The notes below the pieces were generated by a model that worked only from the letters and a program-made list of their open reading frames with translations, ran no database searches and had not been told where the DNA came from. 64,000 nt of DNA from Eledone cirrhosa (taxonomy: Eukaryota). Position numbers and translations under genes: made by a program. How positions within the stretch are numbered: position 1 is the first letter of the stretch; every line of letters starts with the position of its first letter. The stretch is taken from contig OZ024740.1 of the NCBI GenBank assembly GCA_964016885.1, positions 173,228,001-173,292,000 of the forward strand. Reading direction: 5' to 3'. Below are positions 63,603-63,797 of this stretch, piece by piece.

Positions 63603-63797
63603 ATAGGAACCAGTAAGACCCCGACAGCTGAGCTCAAGCCGTTTCGACGGCTAATTCTGGACTAGAATTAGCCGTCGAAACGGCTTGAGCTCAGCTGTCG
63701 GGGTCTTACTGGTTCCTATTACCCACTCTACTACCTCAAGTATTGAGTACTTTGGTGCGTTATGGTCCACCTGGTTCCTTACCACATTTCCTTCGTT
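63603..63797 (+). repeat. Family A hairpin element (117 bp palindrome plus tail) in (TA)n
   Basis: ataggaaccagtaagaccccgacagctgagctcaagccgtttcgacggctaattct mirrored exactly around ~63661. Confidence 0.92.

Follow-up and report, generated by a model that had tools for sequence, protein, structure and literature searches.

We have found a family of very short non-coding insertions in Eledone cirrhosa DNA that very probably originate from a Penelope-like element (PLE) with a hammerhead. Four copies of this family, family A, lie in the 64,000-nt stretch that was analysed as a whole (the window; all coordinates refer to it). Their arms, judged from sequence, are best read as half a hammerhead mirrored at stem II. 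That this origin was combined with a re-mirroring of the arms at insertion we regard as probable, and a specific step involving two cDNAs is put forward tentatively. The PLE class and the layout of its ends are already known; new are the re-mirrored arms and the inversion of the loop relative to the tail, a flip/flop mechanism that we infer from the four copies.

The 117-bp palindrome given in the original prediction was borne out: positions 63603-63719 (+) form 56 of 56 arm pairs, all consecutive and Watson–Crick, around the 5-nt centre GGACT. The folding energy is −126.8 kcal/mol (z = −18), and none of 200 shuffled sequences folded equally low. The inverted left arm (63603-63658) is the mirror of the right arm, and its part at 63623-63645 occupies the place where stem I and CUGANGA would be expected. 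The central loop (63659-63663), putatively loop II, is followed by a putative stem II 3′ strand (63664-63676), the last base of which is the conserved C11.1 (conservation of G10.1-C11.1 is taken from the accessible text of PMC4209133). Then come the GAAA core, stem III with the palindromic loop TGAGCTCA and the GUC triplet (63677-63699), with the putative cut after 63699. The putative stem I 3′ strand and the remaining direct arm (63700-63719) end at TAT, where the inverted arm stops. A 77-bp tail (63720-63796), with an ACTC..GAGT hairpin at 63725-63748, follows the palindrome on one side only. Both flanks are (TA)n tracts, the upstream one (63489-63605) being the target and the downstream one spanning 63797-63821; such tracts would hide any target-site duplication of family A insertions. 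Folding of the tail is unremarkable (z of −0.45, −0.45 and +0.42 in three family A tails).

A search of the 64-kb window with an nhmmer profile of the right arm and tail produced 10 matches. Eight of them are arms or tails of the four predicted copies (E from 3e-45 to 7e-8), the remaining two are noise (E>4), and no unmirrored family A copy was found in the window. The copies had been placed at 8920-9101 (minus strand), 40931-41122 and 63603-63797, with a one-armed copy at 31580; all four stand, apart from one boundary. They make two arm subfamilies, A1 (63603 and 40931) and A2 (9100 and 31580), with 34 to 38 of 53 positions identical between A1 and A2. The second A1 copy (40930-41122, +) pairs at 52 of 56 positions over 40930-41045, and its loop, ATCC (40986-40989), is flipped with respect to that of the 63603 copy. 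The A2 copy at 8943-9100 (−) has the loop GTTC, arms that match at 43 of 53 positions and a tail with two deletions, while the one-armed A2 copy (31579-31717, +) consists of the inverted arm, the loop GAAC (31634-31637), ~6 nt of the direct arm end and the tail. The ~78-bp tail that all copies were said to share is complete in three of them: 63603 and 40931 (75 of 78 positions identical) and 31580 (64–65 of 78). The 9100 copy keeps two tail pieces, ends at CTTCGT (8943) and is followed by ~48 nt unlike family A; therefore, 8920 is not its boundary. These ~48 nt, between the tail end and a TA tract (8895-8942, −), contain GAAACCTTGGGTA, a weak hammerhead-like 3′ half. The predicted location in TA tracts holds in general, with the 9100 copy abutting TA directly on one side only. 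Apart from one 21-nt simple-repeat match, the flanks of the four copies have nothing in common, and the copies are therefore separate insertions.

In the direct arm, C-GAAA is followed by stem III (5 bp, closed by the palindromic loop), GUC and GGGGTC. A motif made of CGAAA, a stem III of at least 4 bp and UH is present in five of the six arm sequences; the left arm of the 9100 copy is without it, and the right arm of that copy has GUU instead of GUC. Dinucleotide shuffles matched this motif 114 times in 20,000 for the 63603 arm (A1) and 531 times in 20,000 for the 31580 arm (A2), and 8 and 37 times in 20,000, respectively, when a 6-nt palindromic loop was also required; all our descriptors, including this one, were written after the sequences had been seen. 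Stem III shows a double-sided change in none of six pairs, six one-sided changes keep G·U, 3 of 36 cells are unpaired, and the covariation score was reached by 316 of 500 shuffles.

The 5′ core CUGANGA is absent from all four family A copies; therefore, the family A element is not a ribozyme. Modelled RNA of a palindromic copy should form a 56-bp hairpin that buries GAAA and GUC and should not self-cleave. A search for GACCC-CTGANGA gave no match on either strand of the 64-kb window, in agreement with the prediction that no intact precursor is present there. Rfam gave 136 matches for the whole window and 32 for the family A element alone, none of them a hammerhead in either case; the microRNA matches of the element are far below cut-offs and reflect the hairpin. 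When sibling elements that do carry the core (see below) were used as a control, Rfam reported no hammerhead at 37090-37270 and, in the other control, an HH9 match at E 1.9. Since Rfam misses or barely sees these core-bearing siblings, its silence on family A says little. The motif statistics, together with siblings that have the 5′ core in the same layout, make the predicted mirrored half hammerhead the best reading; it falls short of proof, as the searches yielded no CTGANGA precursor of family A and double-sided changes are absent from stem III.

Family C provides a precedent within the window, where the same family occurs both unmirrored with CTGAAGA and mirrored at loop III. The unmirrored copy (37125-37260, +; core at 37130) reads CCGAG-CTGAAGA-stem II-GAAA-CAATTG-TT-CTCGG, followed by the tail hairpin; a strict type I scan missed it because its stem II opens with a T·T mismatch. 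This copy begins with a short inverted piece and is adjoined by a 436-bp near-perfect palindrome centred on a TA tract (36673-37108). The copies at 62328-62477 (+) and 31883-32030 (−) are palindromes mirrored exactly at the self-complementary AATT loop III, with a tail. Family B (48270-48494, −, and a second copy at 1-174, −, cut by the window edge) is made of an inverted 3′ half, a decayed 5′ core between the arms, a direct 3′ half and a tail. Sibling D (52680-52810, −) is an unmirrored decayed hammerhead (TTGAATA core, GAAA-CACGTG-TC) with the tail hairpin.

The distance from the putative cut site to the 3′ end is similar in the six elements compared: 97 and 97 nt in A, 102 and 102 nt in C, 102 nt in D and 105 nt in B. 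A scan of both strands of the window for the ACTC..GAGT hairpin gave 13 matches, eight of them at the start of family A–D tails. Taken alone, the tail motif is inside the null range (12 matches versus a null mean of 3.4 and maximum of 12), and its covariation is not significant (66/500). In the three cleanly anchored copies (63603 of A, 62328 and 31883 of C), the inverted arm ends at TA 4–5 nt before the ACTC hairpin; by eye, it ends 4–6 nt before the hairpin in the 40931 copy of A and in family B. A tail model built from B, C and D, without A, found three A hairpins at E 3.1–5.9 (ranks 10, 14 and 15 of 17). Family A is tied to its siblings by layout, without a strong sequence match. A joint descriptor had eight matches in the window versus a null mean of 0.35 and maximum of 3 (200 nulls), the eight including two loose ones (31649 and 54092) and related copies, missing family B and representing three families.

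The strict type I scan of the window detected seven full hammerheads from three repeat families (null mean 0.31, maximum 2 in 100). Full type I hammerheads with the loop III TATATA lie on the minus strand at 10831-10875, 34217-34261 and 40580-40629; the last is 300 bp from the 40931 copy of family A and unrelated to it in sequence. A tandem repeat with a unit of 679 bp, which includes a complete type I hammerhead whose stem II region is 47–50 nt long, was observed at 60722-62270 (+), 34405-35113 (+), 264-978 (+) and 32125-32509 (−). The tandem at 60722-62270 fits the description of a retrozyme, and an inverted 5′ piece (179-410) belongs to the copy at 264. A duplicate block of ~800 bp, inverted between 31718-32509 (−) and 61887-62727 (+) and 95–98% identical, contains a piece of the 679-bp unit, a TA tract, a tailed family C palindrome and a compound simple repeat; it may have arisen by read-through retrotransposition or as a segmental copy. 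Upstream of the 679-bp tandem, at 60651-60697, the first 47 nt of the family C left arm are repeated, resembling an unusually long target-site duplication.

An ORF with reverse transcriptase (RT) and GIY-YIG domains, both just under the Pfam cut-offs, is located at 27327-28475; the only named match of this frame, the second of 13, is an Octopus bimaculoides protein with 54% identity. Broken Penelope-type ORF fragments are present at 27327-29582 (−), 29524-30240 (+) and 49960-50944 (−), the last ending in a decayed CTGATGA. None adjoins family A, and no family A sequence was found beside the PLE ORFs anywhere in the 64-kb window. Two exact-pattern scans of genome contigs, made in case bacterial assemblies contained host DNA, gave no matches, and blastn of the 63603 copy against phages gave no match. 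A 65-aa open frame of the 40931 copy had no phmmer match at E<=0.001 among 1.84 billion representatives and is treated as a chance frame; a 50-aa antisense frame, compared with proteins of 89–2000 aa, gave three candidates, none at E<=1. In the Craig 2021 consensus file (PMC8557442 supplement), where line breaks could hide matches, four to five family A motifs and three further motifs had no matches, and a 9-mer had three unrelated ones. The 3′ end of Naiad_Obim, as given in that supplement, has no likeness by eye to the family A tail.

The inverted 5′ copy with a junction palindrome, the tail at one end and the AT-rich or (TA)n target by which PLE insertions are recognised were all found in family A. 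According to the accessible text of PMC8557442, PLE insertions often have an inverted 5′-truncated copy and a 30–40 bp tail at one end, with several clades preferring (TA)n; in rotifer Penelopes, palindromes at head-to-head junctions were attributed to self-priming on an antisense template (PMC3846280, in part accessible). The likeness to the endonuclease-bearing (EN+) PLEs (Penelope/Poseidon, Neptune and Hydra) covers the head-to-head inverted 5′ copy, the junction palindrome, the one-sided tail, the targets and a hammerhead in the pLTR, as far as described in the available parts of PMC3846280, PMC8557442 and PMC11167929. Unlike these elements, family A is ~190 bp long, has no ORF and has its inversion point inside the hammerhead, which removes CUGANGA; a flip/flop of the loop is not mentioned for EN+ PLEs in the same parts of the three papers. 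Against the PLE reading stand two lengths, the 77-bp one-sided part versus the 30–40 bp tail of the papers and the 5-bp stem III versus the usual 1–2 bp (PMC4209133, accessible text).

Metazoan pLTRs carry minimal hammerheads with a palindromic loop 3, a long helix II and G10.1-C11.1, and PLE hammerheads were found mostly as solo motifs, a few of them being closely paired with another on the opposite strand (Cervera and de la Pena 2014, PMC4209133, accessible text). Family A resembles them in C11.1-GAAA, NUH, palindromic loop 3 and long helix II, and differs in having no 5′ core and, as its sequence suggests, no catalytic activity. Animal (non-LTR) retrozymes are described, in the text available to us, as tandem, core-bearing PLE derivatives (bioRxiv 10.64898/2026.07.22.740005; PMC7229834); like family A, they are short, non-coding and PLE-derived, with a type I hammerhead. 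Retrozymes are head-to-tail tandems with complete ribozymes, whereas the family A elements are dispersed head-to-head monomers with half of one and without the core. In the Octopus vulgaris assembly, PLEs make up 6.83% (PMC13282606, accessible part of the supplement); family A could be present in the repeat library of that study.

Two routes had been proposed for the mirrored arms, recurrent fold-back at stem II and the spread of a core-less hairpin element, along with the observation that the copies differ while their arms stay largely paired. The comparison of arm-to-arm with between-copy differences confirms this observation. Over 53 columns, differences present in both arms number 2 (63603 and 40931), 11 (63603 and 9100) and 10 (40931 and 9100), and the arm-specific mismatches in common to the same pairs number 0, 0 and 1, the latter being a weak test because the 63603 copy has no arm mismatches. 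Arm asymmetry in the three two-armed copies (0, 4 and 10 mismatches) looks like drift following one equalising event. Family B shows the other pattern. Its direct arms are identical at 48 of 51 positions and its inverted arms at 44 of 51, with no mirrored changes, and real arm-specific differences are common to the copies at columns 10, 11 and 22 and at an indel. The arms of family B were inherited as a unit; thus, a mirrored stub does not have to be made anew at every insertion. One arm-specific mismatch is common to the two family C palindromes (62328 and 31883), both being within the duplicated block. Given the both-arm changes in family A and the inherited differences in family B, the genome harbours both routes: family A is better explained by recurrent re-mirroring, spread as a unit is seen in family B, and plain fold-back of a single strand would leave the loop unflipped. 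The original prediction had named neither PLEs as the parent class, nor the flipped loops, nor the intact hammerheads that related repeats carry in the window.

With the tail as reference, the two A1 loops, GGACT and ATCC, are at an edit distance of 4, or of 1 if one is reverse-complemented, and the two A2 loops, GTTC and GAAC, are exact reverse complements. Thus, each of the two pairs that can be compared has its loops in opposite orientations with respect to the tail. In simulations, flipped versus unflipped outcomes per 400,000 were 2707 versus 0 and 3079 versus 20 for A1, and 140,350 versus 1053 and 51,897 versus 1912 for A2; a flip is favoured 27- to >150-fold at the rates tried, for a data set of two pairs from four copies. 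If one cDNA folded back by itself and then jumped to the target, the loop would keep one orientation.

Hairpin micro-inversions and quasi-palindrome correction are general processes. An unlikely alternative with the same PLE and hammerhead origin is that the palindrome spreads as a core-less non-autonomous unit, its arms being equalised by gene conversion or quasi-palindrome repair and its loops being flipped by chromosomal micro-inversion between the arms. The shared arm-specific differences of the family B copies and of the two family C palindromes agree with this alternative, as do the left end and mirror point, identical in all four family A copies. It is at odds with the arm asymmetry, which accumulates instead of being erased; furthermore, the 31580 copy would need both a flip and a deletion, and flips in two of two pairs would need a high inversion rate.

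Re-mirroring at insertion, the reading that we prefer, has parallels in other systems. In L1 twin priming, priming from both target strands gives a 5′ inversion, with the inverted piece upstream and the 3′ end not duplicated. The hairpin ends of parvoviruses are resolved into two loop orientations (flip/flop), a likeness that is mechanistic only, family A having no Rep protein or viral sequence. Purified anole Poseidon was found to cleave and extend both target strands, is predicted to be a dimer and has two start sites of reverse transcription, between which the tail lies; the ribozyme cuts at +26, reverse transcription starts at +111–118, ribozyme cleavage is not needed and recognition by the endonuclease reportedly requires the tail (PMC11167929, accessible text). 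It is conceivable, though we would put it somewhat below an even chance, that the stubs preserve a PLE integration intermediate, in which a PLE dimer makes two cDNAs from two target strands at the two RT start sites bounding the tail and the cDNAs are joined at a self-complementary hammerhead helix (stem II in A, loop III in C). The ribozyme fold would set the inversion point and delete its own core, and loop II would flip and flop at ~1:1.

Our best explanation is that a family A copy is the pLTR end of an endonuclease-bearing PLE targeting (TA)n, and that the source RNA, the presumed CTGANGA-bearing precursor, held a type I hammerhead and then ~100 nt ending in the PLE tail. In the scheme that we propose, the PLE protein would nick both strands of the TA tract. 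One target 3′ end would prime a cDNA at the distal start site, giving arm plus tail, and the other would prime at the proximal site, 4–6 nt before the ACTC hairpin, giving the arm only. Both cDNAs would copy back via GUC, stem III and GAAA into stem II, where its self-complementarity would let them anneal. Co-folding of two identical cDNA ends from stem II gives −27.9 kcal/mol, much the same as a pair of separate hairpins (−13.2 kcal/mol each), and the stem II duplex is therefore feasible. CUGANGA would never be copied; the product would be a palindrome of two head-to-head arms, only one of which bears the tail, and the loop would be a heteroduplex resolved in either orientation. The one-armed 31580 copy would arise in a single step if the first cDNA was short and the second, joined to it, was long. 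Double priming predicts an antisense loop in one-armed copies, and the 31580 loop, the complement of the 9100 loop, is compatible with this, precursor sense aside. The scheme would explain why the left end is fixed, why the tail is on one side only and why the core is lost, and also the both-arm differences and the flips.

The fixed ends and flips would also be expected if a single cDNA folded back at stem II and primed the second strand, making a hairpin-capped end that the PLE endonuclease opens in rolling-hairpin style, cutting one or the other strand at the TA next to the hairpin of the tail. The parts of this quite doubtful alternative have counterparts in the accessible text of three papers: junction palindromes of PLEs have been put down to self-priming (PMC3846280) and the tail to resolution by the endonuclease (PMC8557442), and the endonuclease reportedly needs the tail for recognition (PMC11167929). 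The one-armed copy would require an extra deletion, and in the view of Frangieh et al., who saw both strands extended, the ends of the tail are RT start sites (PMC11167929, accessible text).

It is very improbable that family A is a non-autonomous DNA element (a MITE or a Helentron-associated HINE) with an internal palindrome and a hammerhead look by chance. TA targets would suit Tc1/mariner MITEs, and the hallmarks of Helentrons and HINEs are conserved sub-terminal inverted repeats with a 3′ hairpin and a TT target. In A1, the 5′-end AGGAACCAG and CTGGTTCCT, 19–27 nt from the 3′ end, do make a 9-bp sub-terminal inverted repeat beside a small hairpin. This repeat occurs in A1 only and is not kept in 31580, the targets are TA tracts, and there are no terminal inverted repeats (5, 6, 5 and 1 of 16 terminal bases match). 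The absence of an Rfam hammerhead from family A would agree with a DNA element, but carries little weight for the reason given above, and the layout common with core-bearing siblings would go unexplained. Finally, an assembly or sequencing fold-back artefact is hardly credible: long palindromes beside simple repeats are a known artefact type and the 63603 arms are identical, but the same mirror point recurs at four separate loci with unrelated flanks, and the arms are decayed in two of them.

On the origin of head-to-head inverted PLE ends with a one-sided tail, the accessible text of PMC8557442 asks for an in vitro system, and that of PMC11167929 leaves the steps after priming unvalidated. 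We found no description of core-less mirrored hammerhead stubs or of flip/flop loops in PLEs in the literature searched, subscription papers and repeat databases being mostly outside it. Because the asymmetric loop of 4–5 nt always sits at the mirror point, it labels the strands from within, and its orientation offers a cheap genome-wide test of an open step of PLE integration. If the stubs are integration intermediates, they would explain why PLEs have a head-to-head inverted pLTR and a tail on one side only; should the mechanism be wrong, they are an ordinary set of truncated PLE ends. Mirrored stubs would probably be overlooked when genomes are searched for ribozymes, and might be annotated as MITEs or microRNA-like hairpins.

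Repeats abound in the window, which holds many fragments of retroelements as well as long tracts of (TA)n, (CA)n and (GA)n. Nested and partly tandem LINE fragments with endonuclease and RT frames, which we take to be L1/Tx1-like, fill 14200-23800 and 52850-59000 (−), and an RT-bearing LINE fragment is located at 12358-14129 (+). A repeat of ~200 bp, SINE-like and presumably akin to cephalopod SINEs, is present in about ten copies, including those at 4329-4681, 32607-32796, 33081-33304 and 44965-45157. Further inverted repeats lie at 49074-49304 and 42142-42548. At 25448-25690 (+), the 3′ half of a hammerhead (25448) and another hammerhead that is nearly complete (25666) flank a 99-bp imperfect palindrome (25494-25592).
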